From a virus, in UHGV virus genome UHGV-1357920: a DNA stretch of 10,730 nucleotides. One strand, given 5' to 3'. The notes under the pieces were generated by a model. The model was given only the letters and a program-made list of their open reading frames with translations. It was not told the DNA's origin and did not search any database. Below, one piece after another: positions 306 to 8,191 of the stretch; position 1 is the stretch's first letter, and every line of letters starts with the position of its first letter. Made by a program: the position numbers and the translations under genes.

Positions 306-893
306 TCAGAAAGCAGGGTAATCGTTCTGGCTGTAACCATAATCATCTGCATGATTCTGGCTTACGTTTTTAGAGCGATTGTCTTTATCTTTGAGATTGG
401 CAACCATGTTGGCGATAGTTTCTGGTTGCTTGCCTTCTGCCTTTTCTTTAAGGGTTTGACCTGTTTGTGCAATAAACGGGATGCGTATTTCCATCTGGTA
501 GCTGTCTGCGCCAGTCTTTTTGTTTGTGGTTAATACTTTCTGGAGCACTAACCCGATTTTCTTTCCATGAAATTCAGGTGCAACAAATTTACTGGCGGAA
601 ACCATATGCTGCGTTAATTGTCCAATCCCGGCACACCCCATCATGGCGTGAACGACATTTGCGCCAAATTTGTTTTCCGTTCCGTCATTTTTCTGAACAC
701 AGACGCTAAGATATTGGATTTTACGTCCGTCGTCGGATTCTCCAGAAAACTCAATAAATTTGGCTCCTTTTTCTGATTGCTTTAGTTCTGCTTCAGTAAT
801 GGTAATGATATGGGCGCCAGTTTCGTTAATAAAACCACCTTGCCCTGCGGTCAGTGCTGCTTCTTCGTTATAAGTAAAAATCACGTTGCTCAT
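306..893 (-). CDS. Phage SSB-like protein (DUF669-type partner of Sak4), 195 aa
   Basis: ORF of 195 aa whose ATG (893-891) overlaps the stop of the upstream Walker-A ATPase (ATGA overlap), implying translational coupling. The C-terminus ends in an acidic/aromatic tail (...DDYGYSQNDYPAF) reminiscent of the SSB C-terminal tip. The family call rests on gene context (Sak4-type ATPases are usually paired with a DUF669/SSB-like gene), not on a search. Confidence 0.5.
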   Translation of the reverse strand: MSNVIFTYNEEAALTAGQGGFINETGAHIITITEAELKQSEKGAKFIEFSGESDDGRKIQYLSVCVQKNDGTENKFGANVVHAMMGCAGIGQLTQHMVSASKFVAPEFHGKKIGLVLQKVLTTNKKTGADSYQMEIRIPFIAQTGQTLKEKAEGKQPETIANMVANLKDKDNRSKNVSQNHADDYGYSQNDYPAF

Positions 894-1570
894 GCGGCGT
901 TTTCCTTAATTTGATGAACATTATTGATGCCGTAGTAATCACAAACAGTGGCATCGACGAAAGAGAGATCGTTATCAATCTCATTGGAATCAAACATTCC
1001 CATTGGGGATTTGACAGTGTCTGCACCGTTGTTTTTCGTGGTGAAAAAGAACTGGTCATCGCGGGTAAGAGTGCGAAGAACTATAGTAAACATGCCTTCG
1101 ACAGTGATTTTCTCGTCCAGCATTTTGCCGATAGTTTTCATTTTCACGCGCCCCATAGGGGTTTCTTCGGTATGTGCAAGAAAATAGACTCTCAGGTCAT
1201 CAGGTGCATCCTGTGCAGCCTTAATCACCTCCCATGCGTGGCGGCCTATCTCAGTAAATTTATCAAACGATTTTTCTTCTGAGCGGCGCATAAACTCATT
1301 GCTCATCACATACTGGAAGTCATCAACAATAACGATTCTTTTTCCGTATTCGTGAGCACGCTTAATTACAGCAACTATTACGTCCCATTTGTCAGTGGTA
1401 ACTACGGTTCCTTTTTTTGCTCTGGCATCCCATGCAAGCCAGTCTTTTGATTTAAATGGTAGCGGCTTGCCTATTGGTTTTATAAGTATTGCTTCCTCTG
1501 GATTGATATTTCTCATGCTGGTTGATTTTCCGGTGCCAGATTCACCGAGTATTAATGTCGCAGTTCCCAT
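890..1570 (-). CDS. Sak4-like RecA-fold recombination ATPase (AAA_24-type), 226 aa
   Basis: Walker A GESGTGKST at residues 9-17 and Walker B-like IVIVDD; size and N-terminal P-loop topology fit phage Sak4-type single-strand annealing ATPases. SD GAGG 5 nt upstream of the ATG. It occupies the position of lambda bet/exo in the pL operon. Confidence 0.65.
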   Translation of the reverse strand: MGTATLILGESGTGKSTSMRNINPEEAILIKPIGKPLPFKSKDWLAWDARAKKGTVVTTDKWDVIVAVIKRAHEYGKRIVIVDDFQYVMSNEFMRRSEEKSFDKFTEIGRHAWEVIKAAQDAPDDLRVYFLAHTEETPMGRVKMKTIGKMLDEKITVEGMFTIVLRTLTRDDQFFFTTKNNGADTVKSPMGMFDSNEIDNDLSFVDATVCDYYGINNVHQIKENAA

Positions 1571-2203: not shown

Positions 2204-2530
2204 CTACATAATCATTCCGGTTATTATTACCATTTCAATATCACTATCTTTCATAATGATTGGAGTTGAGTTATCAACTTTACTTTTACTCCATTTTCCT
2301 GCATCAGTTTTTACCGCTCCACAATAAGAAAGCCAATCATCATCACAATGTTCTGGATCACTAATTCTGACAAGAACACGTGATAGTGCTTTTTCGATAC
2401 TTTCATCACAATTAGCATTTGTGTAATTGCCGTGAGACGATTTCAAATCGTTAACTTCATCTTCATTGGCATCAAAAATATAGATTTCAGTCGACTCTGG
2501 AACATTTTCATAAACCATTAAAACTTTCAT
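2204..2530 (-). CDS. Hypothetical acidic, Cys-containing cytoplasmic protein, 108 aa (AT-rich gene)
   Basis: Intact ORF with a GGGG SD 5 nt from the ATG. The sequence is visibly AT-rich relative to the core phage genes. Acidic protein with three Cys; no motif recognised. Confidence 0.55.
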   Translation of the reverse strand: MKVLMVYENVPESTEIYIFDANEDEVNDLKSSHGNYTNANCDESIEKALSRVLVRISDPEHCDDDWLSYCGAVKTDAGKWSKSKVDNSTPIIMKDSDIEMVIITGMIM

Positions 2531-2583: not shown

Positions 2584-3033
2584 TTACTTAACCAATGATG
2601 CTGCATATTCGATAAGGTAAAGCTTTGGGGCCAGCCAAATTTTTAACCAAGTCATATTGGTTACTGCACCAATAATAAAAATCCCCCACAGAGTCAAAAC
2701 TCCAACCAATGGCACGATAAGAAGATTAATATCACCTTTGCTATCCCAAACCATTGTCGGCCTGTATTTGGGATTTCCTTTCTCCCATGAATATCCTTCA
2801 TCACCGATTTTACCTGTTTCAACTCTTTGCCACTGCTTCTTCATAAACCATAAAACCAGAGGGATTGTTAGAATGGCCATTAATGTTTTAATCAGACTGT
2901 CAACAATATTCCATAGCAGCAACTGATGAACAACATCAGGAATCTGTGCCTGGCTAAATGAAACAGCCGCGTCTATTCCATTGCTGGCTTTTTGCAGTAG
3001 TTCTACGAGAATCTTGTTTGCTTGTTCTTCCAT
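2584..3033 (-). CDS. Hypothetical two-TM inner-membrane protein, 149 aa (AT-rich gene)
   Basis: Intact ORF with SD AAGGTG. Two hydrophobic helices (about LIKTLMAILTIPLVLWFM and INLLIVPLVGVLTLWGIFIIGAV). AT-rich; its own terminator lies immediately downstream. No family recognised. Confidence 0.6.
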   Translation of the reverse strand: MEEQANKILVELLQKASNGIDAAVSFSQAQIPDVVHQLLLWNIVDSLIKTLMAILTIPLVLWFMKKQWQRVETGKIGDEGYSWEKGNPKYRPTMVWDSKGDINLLIVPLVGVLTLWGIFIIGAVTNMTWLKIWLAPKLYLIEYAASLVK

Positions 3034-3179
3034 ATATCACCTTAAATAGTGGATTGCGGTAGTAAAGATTGTGCCTGTCTTTTAACCACATCAGGCTCGG
3101 TGGTTCTCGTGTACCCCTACAGCGAGAAATCGGATAAACTCTATTCACCCCCTACAGAGAGAATGATGGAGATTCACCG

Positions 3180-3719
3180 ATGAGTAACTGGTGGCAGGAA
3201 CTATTACGTTTCTTCCTGCGTGGTCTTACGCTACAACAGTTAATTCATATGCTTATTATTTTAATTGCCTTGATAATAATCACCCCCGCATCAATTAAAG
3301 AGTGGGTAGATATAAGGAACCCAGAAATACTTCCAGATCACTGGATGTATTACGCAATGCTTTTGTGTATCAGTTATGTTCTGAACAGGGTGATGGAGTT
3401 TATATTTCTGGCATCTTCAGACAGATATAAAAAATATCTCAGTAAGAGAGATGAGGCTAAAGTAATTGTGGAGACTGAGCGCCTGTTCAATTCTCTGAGT
3501 ATTCAGGAAAAAGAGGTTTTAGCATTTGCTGTTATGGCAAATAACAAAATCGTACTTAAGCACGGCGATCCGGTCGCTTTATCTCTTATGAGAAAAGGCC
3601 TTCTCCATCGCTCAGGTGTGACTTACAGCGCGTCAGGTAAAGAGAAATTTGTTATACCTGACGTCTGGTTCCATGAGTGTTATATGCGCTTTGCTGGTAA
3701 AGCTGATGAGCTAATTTAG
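3180..3719 (+). CDS. sieB: SieB-like superinfection exclusion membrane protein, 179 aa
   Basis: Plus-strand ORF embedded among leftward pL-operon genes and convergent with N (its 3' end is 22 nt from the N stop), the arrangement I recall for lambda sieB. N-terminal hydrophobic helices (LIHMLIILIALIIITPA; YYAMLLCISYVLNRVMEFIFLA); SD GGAG 8 nt upstream. The call is based on position and membrane topology, not on a verified alignment. Confidence 0.5.
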   Translation: MSNWWQELLRFFLRGLTLQQLIHMLIILIALIIITPASIKEWVDIRNPEILPDHWMYYAMLLCISYVLNRVMEFIFLASSDRYKKYLSKRDEAKVIVETERLFNSLSIQEKEVLAFAVMANNKIVLKHGDPVALSLMRKGLLHRSGVTYSASGKEKFVIPDVWFHECYMRFAGKADELI

Positions 3720-3725
3720 TTCCTC

Positions 3726-3753
3726 GACGGCGGGGGATCGTCACCTCGCCGTC
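3726..3753. terminator. GC-rich hairpin at the convergent sieB-like / N junction (possible bidirectional terminator)
   Basis: Inverted repeat GACGGCG (3726-3732) / CGCCGTC (3747-3753), extendable to about 10 bp with a G-U pair. It overlaps the N stop codon and is followed on the plus strand by a partly T-rich tract (AGTTGTTTGGATTT). Confidence 0.4.
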
Positions 3754-4124
3754 AGTTGTTTGGATTTCCGGTAGCCTGCCGCGTAAATGGCTACGTTTGG
3801 AAGACATACACCAGTTTCTGGTTGCTTATGTCCAAACTCATTCGCGTACACAATGGCCGCTCGCTCCAGATTGCGTCTGTATTCTTTCTGTTGCCAGATC
3901 ACGTCCTGTGCCATGAACTTAATTGGCTTAGCGTCTTCTATGCGCTCAGGCGTTTCGTGAGTACCTTTAGCCTGAATCTGCGCTCTGCTTAGAGTAGGGC
4001 GGTGTAATACTTCTGAACTTATTGCTTCTTCGCGGGCCAGCACGCCGTTAGCTAATGCCTTTGCCTTTAAACGCTCACGACGACGAGAACGTGAATTGCC
4101 TTTGAACTGAGTTCTGCGTGTCAT
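3741..4124 (-). CDS. N: N-type transcription antiterminator, 127 aa
   Basis: N-terminal arginine-rich motif (GNSRSRRRERLKAKALANG). The C-terminus ...AIYAAGYRKSKQLTAR closely resembles the C-terminus of P22 gp24/N as I recall it. SD AGGAGG upstream; a P22-type boxB lies in the leader. This is the first gene of the leftward early operon. Confidence 0.8.
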   Translation of the reverse strand: MTRRTQFKGNSRSRRRERLKAKALANGVLAREEAISSEVLHRPTLSRAQIQAKGTHETPERIEDAKPIKFMAQDVIWQQKEYRRNLERAAIVYANEFGHKQPETGVCLPNVAIYAAGYRKSKQLTAR

Positions 4125-4372: not shown

Positions 4373-4416
4373 ACTTTATCGAAATGATAAATTAATGGCA
4401 ATAGCAAAATGATAAA
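4373..4416 (-). promoter_or_regulatory. pL promoter with OL operators (17-bp TTTATC-N5-GATAAA palindromes)
   Basis: OL1 at 4375-4391 is the perfect palindrome TTTATCgaaatGATAAA; OL2 at 4400-4416 is AATAGCaaaatGATAAA. On the minus strand the candidate -35 is TTGCCA (plus 4401-4396), followed by a 17-nt spacer and -10 TAAAGT (plus 4378-4373). The layout closely mirrors PR on the other side of cI. Confidence 0.5.
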
Positions 4417-4596
4417 TTTTCTTGGTTTTCAAATATCGTATTGATTCTTATGGTGTTTTATTTTGTTGTAGGAATTCGACAGGATAAATAAAGAGATTTG
4501 AGGGAGATCTGGATTGCGTTGTTTAGCAAGTTGTATCTATCAATTTTTCAACAAATACAATTGGTTATGTGTTTTTAGGTGTGGGGATCGTCAGGC

Positions 4597-4622
4597 AAAG
4601 AAAACCCGGCGCGGAAGCCGGG
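4597..4622 (-). terminator. Rho-independent terminator (minus strand) ending the cI / 341-aa-gene transcript (lambda tImm equivalent)
   Basis: Stem CCCGGC (4605-4610) / GCCGGG (4617-4622), loop GCGGAA; followed on the minus strand by UUUUCUUU (plus 4597-4604). It lies 14 nt past the stop of the 341-aa gene. Confidence 0.7.
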
Positions 4623-4635
4623 GTTAGATTTTCTG

Positions 4636-5661
4636 TTATGGGCGAGTGATGGTTGATGCGTTTCCGTTTTCTATTACACCTGCTCGTATCGTGTAGCTTC
4701 CCAAGATTTTTACTGTCCTGTTTTCTTTCATTGCATCAAACAGTATGGCGATCTCGTCTTTATCATCTATGAACGACGTGTCCACCGAAACAGGGAAACT
4801 GTCTTCACTAGATGGTTCGCGGCAGCTTAGGGTTATCTTTTCCGCAGTACGCTTGATTCCATCAATGACTAATTCAAGGTTTCTTTCTTCTTTTTTTGCT
4901 TTTTCGATAGGGTTTTTGATTAGTTCGTGGATTTCTTTGTTAGACAGTTCAACTGTGCTTGCGCCTGATATGACAATTTTGTCAGCATCAGACGCGCCTT
5001 TTAATACCCCTGTATACGCTTTTGCAGTATGCTCTTGAATCCCTTCGGCGCGCTCTACTGCATCTATGCCCGCTTTAGCTCTAATCGCCTCAAGCATTCC
5101 GTCCCTTAATATCGTCATGCGCTCGTTTTCTGATTTAATCTTGGCTTCTTCGAGCTTTGTTTCTTCTTGCTTGACTTCTACTTCGGCTTTTTTCTCTAAG
5201 TATGATGTACCAACCCATGCACCGCCTATAACGGTGACAGCAAACAAGAAGCATAATGTTTTTTGGCTAGGACTCATACCGTGTGTTACCTTCTCAAAGG
5301 CTTTACCGAATGCTTCAAAAAGCTCTGTTAATGCAGCAAGTATATCAGTACAACCTTCATTAATGGTAAAGATGATCTCTGCTTCTTCTTTATCTTTACC
5401 GGTTAACCTTTGAAGGTTGTCAGTTTTATATTTTATTAGTGTGAAAACTTTATAAATTTCAGTCTGAAATTCGCATAAACCCTGAGCTAGAGGAGATGGA
5501 AGCGTTCCGTTGTAGCGAGAAGGATCACCATAAATCTTAAAATTCACATTATTGAAGAGGTCTAACTTGATCCTGTCGATAGTGATCTCTTCGCCACCAT
5601 CTAACCTTGCAAACAAAGATTCAATGTCGTCCAGACTTGAAACATTAATAATATCTTTCAT
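4636..5661 (-). CDS. Hypothetical 341-aa single-pass membrane protein in the cI-downstream (rexAB-equivalent) slot; candidate lysogen-expressed exclusion/defence protein
   Basis: Intact ORF with SD AGGTG 5 nt from the ATG, immediately downstream of and co-oriented with cI. One predicted TM helix (about LCFLFAVTVIGGAWVGTSYL), a soluble N-terminal region of about 130 aa and a K/E-rich, probably helical, C-terminal region. AT-rich; followed by a strong terminator. No known motif recognised. Confidence 0.75.
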   Translation of the reverse strand: MKDIINVSSLDDIESLFARLDGGEEITIDRIKLDLFNNVNFKIYGDPSRYNGTLPSPLAQGLCEFQTEIYKVFTLIKYKTDNLQRLTGKDKEEAEIIFTINEGCTDILAALTELFEAFGKAFEKVTHGMSPSQKTLCFLFAVTVIGGAWVGTSYLEKKAEVEVKQEETKLEEAKIKSENERMTILRDGMLEAIRAKAGIDAVERAEGIQEHTAKAYTGVLKGASDADKIVISGASTVELSNKEIHELIKNPIEKAKKEERNLELVIDGIKRTAEKITLSCREPSSEDSFPVSVDTSFIDDKDEIAILFDAMKENRTVKILGSYTIRAGVIENGNASTITRP

Positions 5662-5741: not shown

Positions 5742-6446
5742 TCACGAACTTTTCAGCCATTCCCTTGCCTCGATGTCATCCAGATGGCGAGACTGCTTCA
5801 GAATACCAGCAACATACTCCACCTTTGCTACTTGATGATAAGGCAACGTTATTGGCCTGTGGTCCTGGTTGATGCTTGTAAATTGGTATTCTCCATCTCT
5901 GTCATAGCCAAGAACCTTAATCATGTTGTGTCCTTCAACGGTTCTGACAAACACCTCATCACCCGGGAATACTTTGGTGTTAGGCTCAATGAGTACATAT
6001 TCTCCTGATTTTATTCTGGGCCACATGCTGTCTCCTTTCACACGAAGACCAAAGGCATCTGGATCATCGCTATAAATTTTGAGCCACCCATCGCGCTCTT
6101 CGGTCATCTCGATGGCACCATCAACACCAAGAATTGCCTCACCAACCACGCGCACTAACCCTTTTCTTACCTGACCGACAAAAGTTAAAGAATCTGAGCA
6201 TGATGCAATTGGTGTTACATCATGTACCAAATCAAGCCACCCATTAGGTAACCCAAGCGCGGCTTCAAATTTTCTTGCTAGTTTATCCCCTATGTTTCGA
6301 GTGCTTTTTTCACCGGAGACTTGCGTGAGTTGAGAAGGGCTAACCCCAAGCTTATCGGCAAAGCTTGCATTAGTGTTACCCGCGATTTTTTTATGCTCAT
6401 CTAGCAAAAACGCCAGATTCGATTTGCGAATATCTTTGTTTTCCAT
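5742..6446 (-). CDS. cI: CI-type prophage repressor (N-terminal HTH plus C-terminal S24/LexA-like autocleavage domain), 234 aa
   Basis: The N-terminus has an XRE-type HTH (...ASFADKLGVSPSQLTQVSG...). The C-terminal domain carries the S24 peptidase signature GDSMWP (Ser nucleophile) and a downstream Lys (MIKVL). It is divergent from the cro-like gene across an operator-rich 113-bp spacer. Confidence 0.85.
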   Translation of the reverse strand: MENKDIRKSNLAFLLDEHKKIAGNTNASFADKLGVSPSQLTQVSGEKSTRNIGDKLARKFEAALGLPNGWLDLVHDVTPIASCSDSLTFVGQVRKGLVRVVGEAILGVDGAIEMTEERDGWLKIYSDDPDAFGLRVKGDSMWPRIKSGEYVLIEPNTKVFPGDEVFVRTVEGHNMIKVLGYDRDGEYQFTSINQDHRPITLPYHQVAKVEYVAGILKQSRHLDDIEAREWLKSS

Positions 6447-7253: not shown

Positions 7254-7397
7254 ATGCGAAAAACGCAGGAAAATAAACGCGTTAATCACCGAAAAGATGT
7301 GCTACGTGACCAGTTTTATCAGGGGGTTAATCCAGCAATAGCTGTGCCACTGAGAGAAATACTTAACAGGTACAAAACTTCGGAGAAGTCAAAATGA
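7254..7397 (+). CDS. Small basic hypothetical protein, 47 aa (internal start of track ORF 7086..7397)
   Basis: ATG at 7254 is preceded by SD GAGG (7243-7246); its stop overlaps the start of the O-like gene (ATGA at 7394-7397), suggesting translational coupling. Sequence MRKTQENKRVNHRKDVLRDQFYQGVNPAIAVPLREILNRYKTSEKSK. Could be a spurious ORF. Confidence 0.4.
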   Translation: MRKTQENKRVNHRKDVLRDQFYQGVNPAIAVPLREILNRYKTSEKSK

Positions 7398-8191
7398 GCA
7401 TGAATCTTATGGCTAAGGCCATGAATATAAAGGTTGGCAACCCACTGAGAAAACTGGTTCTGATTAAACTTGCCGATAACGCCAATGATAATGGCGAATG
7501 CTGGCCTTCATATCAACATGTCGCTGACCAGTGTGAGGTGAGCAGATCGACAGTAAAAAGTCACATTAGGGCACTGGAAGAGATGGGGCTTTTGAAAAGG
7601 GAATTCAGAAGAAAAGGAGAGCTTAACCAGTCAAACGTTTTTTATCTGACGCTGGATAATGCACAACAAATCCAACCAGAATCAGGTGGGGCAGGAGCTG
7701 CCCGGGGTGGGGCAGGAGCTGCCCGGGGTGGGGCAGGAGCTGCCCTAGGGGGTGGGGCAGGAGCTGCCCCCAGAACCTATCACTCTTTTGAACCAGTCAA
7801 TGAACCTAAAAACATTATGTTCGAACATGTCCGAACGGAGTGTGAAAAAACTCCTGACCGTCACGAAGAAACCGACAAGGCATTCGAGGAAATATTCTGG
7901 TGTGCAGGCATGCGGAAAGCCGGGAAGAAAAACGCAGCTTCGGCATTCAGAACACAGTTCAGGGAATGGCGTAAAACTACCAGGGGTACGGCAAGCGAGT
8001 TTGCCACGATGCTGGCAGAAGACATCGCATGCAGGAGTGGTAAGCAGTTCGGATTCGACAGGTTGTTACCATCGAGCTACCTGAACGGTCAACGCTGGAA
8101 CGACGAGAAGCCAGAAACTATTCAACCGCAACCCAAACCATCATCCGCAATCACCGTATCGAAAACTGGCTACGTGTTTTTCGACAGGTGA
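7394..8191 (+). CDS. Replication initiator (lambda O-like role) with N-terminal winged-HTH and an iteron-encoded Gly/Ala-rich linker, 265 aa
   Basis: The N-terminal HTH region (CWPSYQHVADQCEVSRSTVKSHIRALEEMGLLKRE) is typical of phage replication-initiation proteins. The central peptide repeat GGAGAAR is encoded by four tandem DNA iterons. The gene sits after cII, where lambda O and P22 gene 18 lie. Confidence 0.7.
   Translation: MSMNLMAKAMNIKVGNPLRKLVLIKLADNANDNGECWPSYQHVADQCEVSRSTVKSHIRALEEMGLLKREFRRKGELNQSNVFYLTLDNAQQIQPESGGAGAARGGAGAARGGAGAALGGGAGAAPRTYHSFEPVNEPKNIMFEHVRTECEKTPDRHEETDKAFEEIFWCAGMRKAGKKNAASAFRTQFREWRKTTRGTASEFATMLAEDIACRSGKQFGFDRLLPSSYLNGQRWNDEKPETIQPQPKPSSAITVSKTGYVFFDR
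7686..7769. repeat. Four tandem iterons (GTGGGGCAGGAGCTGCCC; period 21, 21, 24 bp), putative phage origin inside the initiator gene
   Basis: Directly visible copies at 7686-7703, 7707-7724, 7728-7745 and 7752-7769, followed by a relatively AT-rich stretch (about 7775-7835). This is the same architecture as lambda ori inside O. Confidence 0.7.

Follow-up and report, generated by a model that had tools for sequence, protein, structure and literature searches.

The sieB locus in the leftward operon

The DNA considered here, the 10,730 nucleotides (nt) of the UHGV virus genome UHGV-1357920 (this whole stretch is called the window below), carries a plus-strand gene of 179 codons that runs antisense to the pL operon and converges with the antitermination gene N (Table 1). 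An original prediction, made from the sequence alone, had taken its product for a SieB-like membrane protein. The ATG is the first start codon 3' of an in-frame stop in the list of open reading frames (ORFs), and by Pfam and PHROG matches the gene is the only family-supported one on the plus strand between positions 306 and 6446. Five other plus-strand ORFs, all overlapping the minus-strand genes, gave no family match, leaving this as the sole supported plus-strand gene within the leftward operon; among family-supported genes, the original prediction was right in that respect. The operon that it opposes is defined by a pL-like promoter and a nutL hairpin. Between the end of the gene (3719) and the N stop codon (3741–3743) lies a spacer of 21 nt (3720–3740), so that the two genes are as close as had been predicted, the 22 nt then given being the difference between the coordinates and not the length of the spacer. 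The same arrangement is found in P22 and lambda: P22 sieB likewise has the ral-side genes on one side and, on the other, the N homologue, with which it is convergent, and lambda sieB (lambdap48, 34482–35036) abuts the end of N, as in the window. For the N protein, the BLAST alignment with P22 gp24 was confined to the last 30 residues, which are 67% identical. The G+C content of the gene is 39.6%, compared with 44.7% for the window, which we read as moron-like.

Table 1. Features of the sieB region and of the surrounding leftward operon in the window
Feature	Position	Strand	Basis
sieB coding sequence (179 amino acids; TAG stop 3717–3719)	3180–3719	+	ORF list, Pfam, PHROG, P22 alignment
Shine-Dalgarno sequence GGAG, 8 nt 5' of the sieB ATG	3168–3171	+	read from sequence
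Putative sieB promoter, 31/31 identical to the annotated P22 promoter (P22 29690–29720)	3110–3140	+	alignment
Conserved cassette of ~130 base pairs upstream of sieB	3030–3165	.	alignments
Esc-like in-frame product, 156 amino acids from Met24	3249–3719	+	P22 esc annotation and alignment
Candidate sas-like RNA (inferred only)	3140–3283	-	hexamers, fold
Terminator-like hairpin and tail, AGTTGTTTGG	3726–3763	+	fold; stem-loop 3726–3753
N antiterminator, convergent with sieB	3741–4124	-	Pfam N_peptide, E = 2.1e-15; PHROG 271
boxB-like hairpin GCGCTGACAAAGCGC (nutL)	4304–4290	-	same 15-mer in annotated P22 nutL
pL-like promoter TTGCCA-17-TAAAGT	4401–4373	-	upstream of N
SSB	306–893	-	family match
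Sak4-like annealase	890–1570	-	family match
66-amino acid protein, Kil, cIII		-	family matches
PHROG 4658 gene	2204–2530	-	PHROG match
PHROG 3054 gene	2584–3033	-	PHROG match
PHROG 6191 gene	4636–5661	-	PHROG match
cI-like repressor	5742–6446	-	family match

Assignment to the SieB family

The 179-amino acid (aa) protein matched the Pfam SieB profile PF14163 with 72.8 bits (E = 3e-20), far above the curated cut-off of 26 bits, and PHROG 1301 over its entire length (residues 1–179; E = 3.6e-94). BLASTP aligned it without gaps to P22 SieB, with 87 of 178 residues identical (49%; E = 2e-57), and the SieB proteins of both P22 and lambda match PF14163 themselves (E = 1e-29 for lambda). A weaker match (E = 9.6e-6) was to PHROG 6399, likewise annotated as SieB, which may presumably be the lambda-type family. 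The identical protein occurs on 575 public contigs under the name "super-infection exclusion protein B", and a 99.4%-identical locus in RefSeq carries the same annotation; the SieB identity of the exact protein is therefore already known in public databases. No match was found in an NCBIfam scan, and a sequence search of the PDB returned nothing meaningful.

Profiles, alignment and public name all bear out the SieB-like identity that had been proposed, and the comparison with P22 SieB suggested at that time gave a clear answer. The opposite outcome, no SieB similarity together with homology to an unrelated family, was plainly not what was found. Position, convergence with N and two N-terminal membrane helices, on which the original prediction had drawn, are all present. 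We consider it very probable that the gene is the P22-type sieB of a lambdoid Escherichia coli prophage, occupying its usual site opposite N. Nothing beyond the usual warning about spurious antisense ORFs speaks for the reading that this is no real gene, or that it encodes some unrelated small membrane protein and lies antisense in the pL operon by chance; that reading has next to no probability and is refuted by the strong family matches, the conserved promoter described below and a position shared with P22 and lambda.

The family to which the gene belongs was searched for at two depths. A word-indexed homologue search yielded 6 relatives only, and an exhaustive HMMER search of 1.84 billion representatives yielded 37 SieB clusters; as the exhaustive search gave no more than these, the family is small. 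Many database entries are SieB fragments of 90–133 aa, and PHROG 37662 (108 aa, function unknown) matches exactly residues 72–179 (3393–3719, plus strand; E = 1.2e-73). Rather than a product of their own, the short entries appear to represent truncated contigs or starts called in error. Met72 was ruled out as a real start: the preceding AGGGTG leaves no spacing to the ATG, and the database entries are in many cases fragments.

The promoter and its upstream cassette

The putative sieB promoter is identical at every position to the 31-nt promoter annotated in P22, and position 3147 of the window is the equivalent of the annotated P22 sieB RNA start. Given this identity, the promoter would be expected to function here as well. 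It forms part of a conserved cassette with 95–100% identity across lambda, P22 and 117 phage records. Besides the promoter, this cassette holds two CCCCTACAG repeats, and its left end carries the Shine-Dalgarno sequence and the start of the gene that follows in the leftward direction. The ~125 base pairs (bp) upstream of P22 sieB are nearly identical to those of the window, whereas the Shine-Dalgarno regions of the two genes differ; in lambda, the same cassette is present with both CCCCTACAG repeats. The lambda sieB promoter was reportedly identified by this homology (Ranade and Poteete, J Bacteriol 1993). The cassette was also considered as the lambda small RNA PreS/LPR1 and this was ruled out, as LPR1 sits between ea10 and ral.

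The CCCCTACAG repeats are exact direct copies 35 bp apart (3114–3122 and 3149–3157, plus strand). The first overlaps the promoter and the second lies 2 nt past the equivalent of the RNA start. A search for loci related to the window sieB provided 5 loci, and eight sieB loci, from Escherichia, Salmonella, Yersinia, Phytobacter, Serratia and Arsenophonus, were compared; both copies were present in all eight, and the core (T/C)ACCCCTAC was nearly invariant in spite of flank divergence.

The putative internal Esc start

In P22, esc is annotated from codon 25 of sieB, and the ungapped alignment places this start at Met24 of the window protein (ATG 3249–3251), so that the Esc methionine stands in the same place in both. 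Met24 is invariant among 9 P22-type SieB proteins, and all 22 aligned family members, lambda included, have a methionine within 2 residues of this position. An in-frame internal start had been sought in the original prediction together with its own Shine-Dalgarno sequence; the start was found, and the 22 nt before ATG 3249 contain no Shine-Dalgarno sequence. The P22 Esc start likewise lacks one, so having an internal Shine-Dalgarno sequence does not define the prototype.

Conservation of the internal methionine across the family also raises the possibility that the gene is mainly an antidote of the Esc type, its Met24 product guarding the phage against the SieB of other resident prophages, and that it would not itself be an exclusion factor. 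For the proteins of the window, P22 and lambda alike, the Pfam SieB model sets in close to the Esc start, and several database representatives (P0011, P0017 and P0029) begin at the internal methionine; P22 Esc reportedly overcomes lambda SieB. Set against this, no break interrupts the full-length ORF, Met1 has a good Shine-Dalgarno sequence where Met24 has none, and conservation with P22 is high in the first 23 residues (77% identity for residues 2–27). The lysogen-type promoter is also intact, and the arrangement is that of the exclusion-proficient P22 gene. We regard a mainly antidotal role as unlikely, and a sieB gene encoding both products as the better description.

A candidate antisense RNA

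In P22, the cis-antisense RNA sas shifts translation from SieB to Esc (PMC10461980, PMC10002423, PMC12197685), and its length is given as 105 nt (PMC12197685); the details of sas used here rest on these reviews. On the minus strand of the window, a promoter-like sequence, GTGATT-17-AATAAT, lies at 3283–3255, with a putative start at ~3248. At equal offset P22 has ATAACA-17-GATGAT, and similar hexamers are present in four other loci. A hairpin at ~3166–3145 on the same strand is followed by UUUAUCC, which would give an RNA of ~105–110 nt spanning the sieB Shine-Dalgarno sequence and start codon, and not the Esc start. No Rfam family was found over the sieB region. Together, these features are suggestive only of a sas-like antisense RNA at the window sieB.

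Junction between sieB and N

The G+C-rich hairpin that the original prediction had noted at the junction (3726–3753) is real, with a loop of 8 and a stem of 10 pairs, of which 8 are G-C. The spacer supplies its 5' arm, and the 3' arm falls within the last codons of N. When a 56-nt segment containing it (3715–3770) was folded, the plus strand gave -22.2 kcal/mol (z = -3.1 versus shuffled sequences) and the minus strand -17.8 kcal/mol, the latter without a U tail. By its predicted fold, the hairpin probably terminates the sieB transcript. A role as pL terminator was ruled out, the minus-strand form being weaker and having no U tract. No such hairpin was found at the sieB/N junctions of P22, lambda and one further locus, L007. 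As L007 has the same N end and a P22-type sieB yet no hairpin, the structure is allele-specific; it is not a general feature of the sieB/N junction.

Divergence from P22 and lambda SieB

Several observations weigh against the assignment of the gene as a P22-type sieB with its attendant functions. PADLOC models gave no match to the window SieB. Function has been tested only in P22 SieB, just under half of whose residues are shared, and the window protein is shorter than P22 SieB by 13 C-terminal residues. Pairwise BLASTP with lambda SieB gave a spurious alignment (E = 0.10), and identity between the two is 21% in the multiple alignment. This null result sets alleles of the P22 type apart from those of the lambda type and leaves membership of the family unaffected; at sequence level, the relation to lambda sieB appears only in a common Pfam profile and promoter cassette. 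Met24 lacks a Shine-Dalgarno sequence, as described above. The sas-like promoter is weak (8/12), its -10-like hexamer is forced by Ile-Ile codons, and none of the 60 records inspected, out of 90 phage records matching the P22 sieB 5' region, has a sas annotation.

Such divergence would suit a SieB homologue that has lost its exclusion activity or turned it to a different phage target and is carried along by mosaic recombination. Besides the overall identity of 49% and the missing C-terminal tail of P22, the stalk (residues 81–110) is just 23% identical, and no sequenced phage isolate carries the allele at more than 60% identity, every one of the 91 matching phage records falling below 60%. Against it stand the occurrence of the exact protein on 575 contigs, the 179-aa versions named SieB in E. 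albertii and E. marmotae, and the presence of the locus in ~70 of 5426 complete E. coli genomes, with 98.6–99.4% identity among the matches listed; promoter, Shine-Dalgarno sequence and terminator are all present as well. This spread, together with the intact signals, suggests that the gene is maintained. Loss or retargeting of exclusion is decidedly improbable in our judgment, and the gene is treated below as P22-type sieB.

Predicted structure of SieB

Hydropathy analysis indicated two hydrophobic helices, at residues ~16–38 and 55–79, the same two N-terminal membrane helices as in P22 SieB/Esc (P22gp44/45). The AlphaFold2 model (mean predicted local distance difference test score of 82) contains a short N-terminal helix, membrane helix 1 at ~18–34, a short loop helix, a long helix (55–104) that combines membrane helix 2 with the stalk, and a compact domain at 108–171, which is predicted to be winged-helix-like. 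A BFVD fold search with this model returned SieB relatives only. Positive charges past helix 2 and near the N-terminus suggest that both ends of the modeled protein are cytoplasmic (N-in/C-in).

From this model it could be imagined that SieB is a winged-helix protein tethered to the membrane and that its cytoplasmic domain is a nucleic acid-binding one, with the CCCCTACAG pair that brackets the promoter and RNA start as a possible target, an idea to which we give only a slim chance of being correct. If it were true, exclusion, antagonism by Esc and autoregulation would all operate through one membrane-anchored DNA- or RNA-binding switch. In the literature and database sources consulted, neither the winged-helix fold of SieB nor the CCCCTACAG repeats were found described.

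Proposed mechanism

SieB stops macromolecular synthesis in the middle of the lytic cycle of superinfecting P22-like phages, and Esc is its inhibitor (PMC10461980, PMC10002423, PMC12197685). Exclusion activity of the window SieB is inferred from the P22 and lambda literature, on which the following scheme is also modeled. In a lysogen, with pL silent, sieB would be transcribed from its own repressor-independent promoter and would yield full-length SieB plus the shorter Esc from Met24. Upon superinfection by a heteroimmune lambdoid phage, SieB would halt macromolecular synthesis mid-lytic cycle, resulting in abortive infection. Esc, which lacks the first 23 residues, would antagonize SieB, and the phage's own cis-antisense RNA would shift translation from SieB to Esc, so that the phage could escape its own system. 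On the plus strand, the junction hairpin most likely keeps sieB transcripts from running antisense into N, a proposal of our own. As a working model, the C-terminal domain would sense a phage product, the membrane part would execute the arrest, and Esc would poison the assembly; we think that such C-terminal sensing with arrest executed at the membrane is the likeliest mechanism.

Neighboring genes

Near the pL-like promoter, repeated TTTATCATTT motifs (4373–4440, minus strand) resemble operators. Upstream of this promoter, the PHROG 6191 gene (function unknown) encodes 341 aa and lies between the cI-like repressor and pL, the place of rexAB in lambda. Its product has one central hydrophobic segment and no Pfam match, and the exact protein was present on 559 contigs, every time named hypothetical. 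The gene is followed by a strong two-way terminator-like hairpin (4605–4622).

Like SieB, the Rex system of lambda (RexA/RexB) is expressed from the prophage, acts at the membrane and aborts superinfection without blocking entry. The two have no sequence relationship: Rex consists of two proteins encoded in the cI operon, whereas SieB comes from one gene, which lies antisense in the pL operon and has its antidote as an internal product. The original prediction had also named the 341-aa gene, and possibly an AT-rich pair, as exclusion functions. PADLOC defense models gave no match for the 341-aa protein or the two AT-rich genes, and assigning them to exclusion is a guess from position.

On the other side of sieB, the PHROG 3054 gene (149 aa, with hydrophobic helices) and the PHROG 4658 gene (108 aa), both of function unknown, occupy the place of the ral-side genes of lambda and P22. 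Neither had a defense-model match. The Shine-Dalgarno sequence and ATG of the 149-aa gene stand at the left edge of the conserved cassette, where lambda orf28 starts. Farther along the minus strand, Rfam Lambda_thermo, the cIII thermoregulator, was matched at full length at 1965–2023 (88.5 bits, E = 5e-21) and was the sole Rfam match in the window. On the plus strand, an O-like replication gene (7394–8191) has a repeated GGAGAAR motif (SGGAGAARGGAGAARGGAGAALGGGAGAAP) in its translation at ~7700–7800, implying that the O gene holds DNA repeats in tandem, as origin iterons would.

Significance

The analysis confirms a standard sieB module, and its main value is correct annotation. With such a module in the prophage, some heteroimmune lambdoid phages may meet with abortive infection in its host. 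This bears on the ecology of Stx phages and, in E. coli, on phage typing or therapy. The winged-helix-like domain and the paired promoter repeats, neither of which is specific to the window, could help to explain how SieB works.
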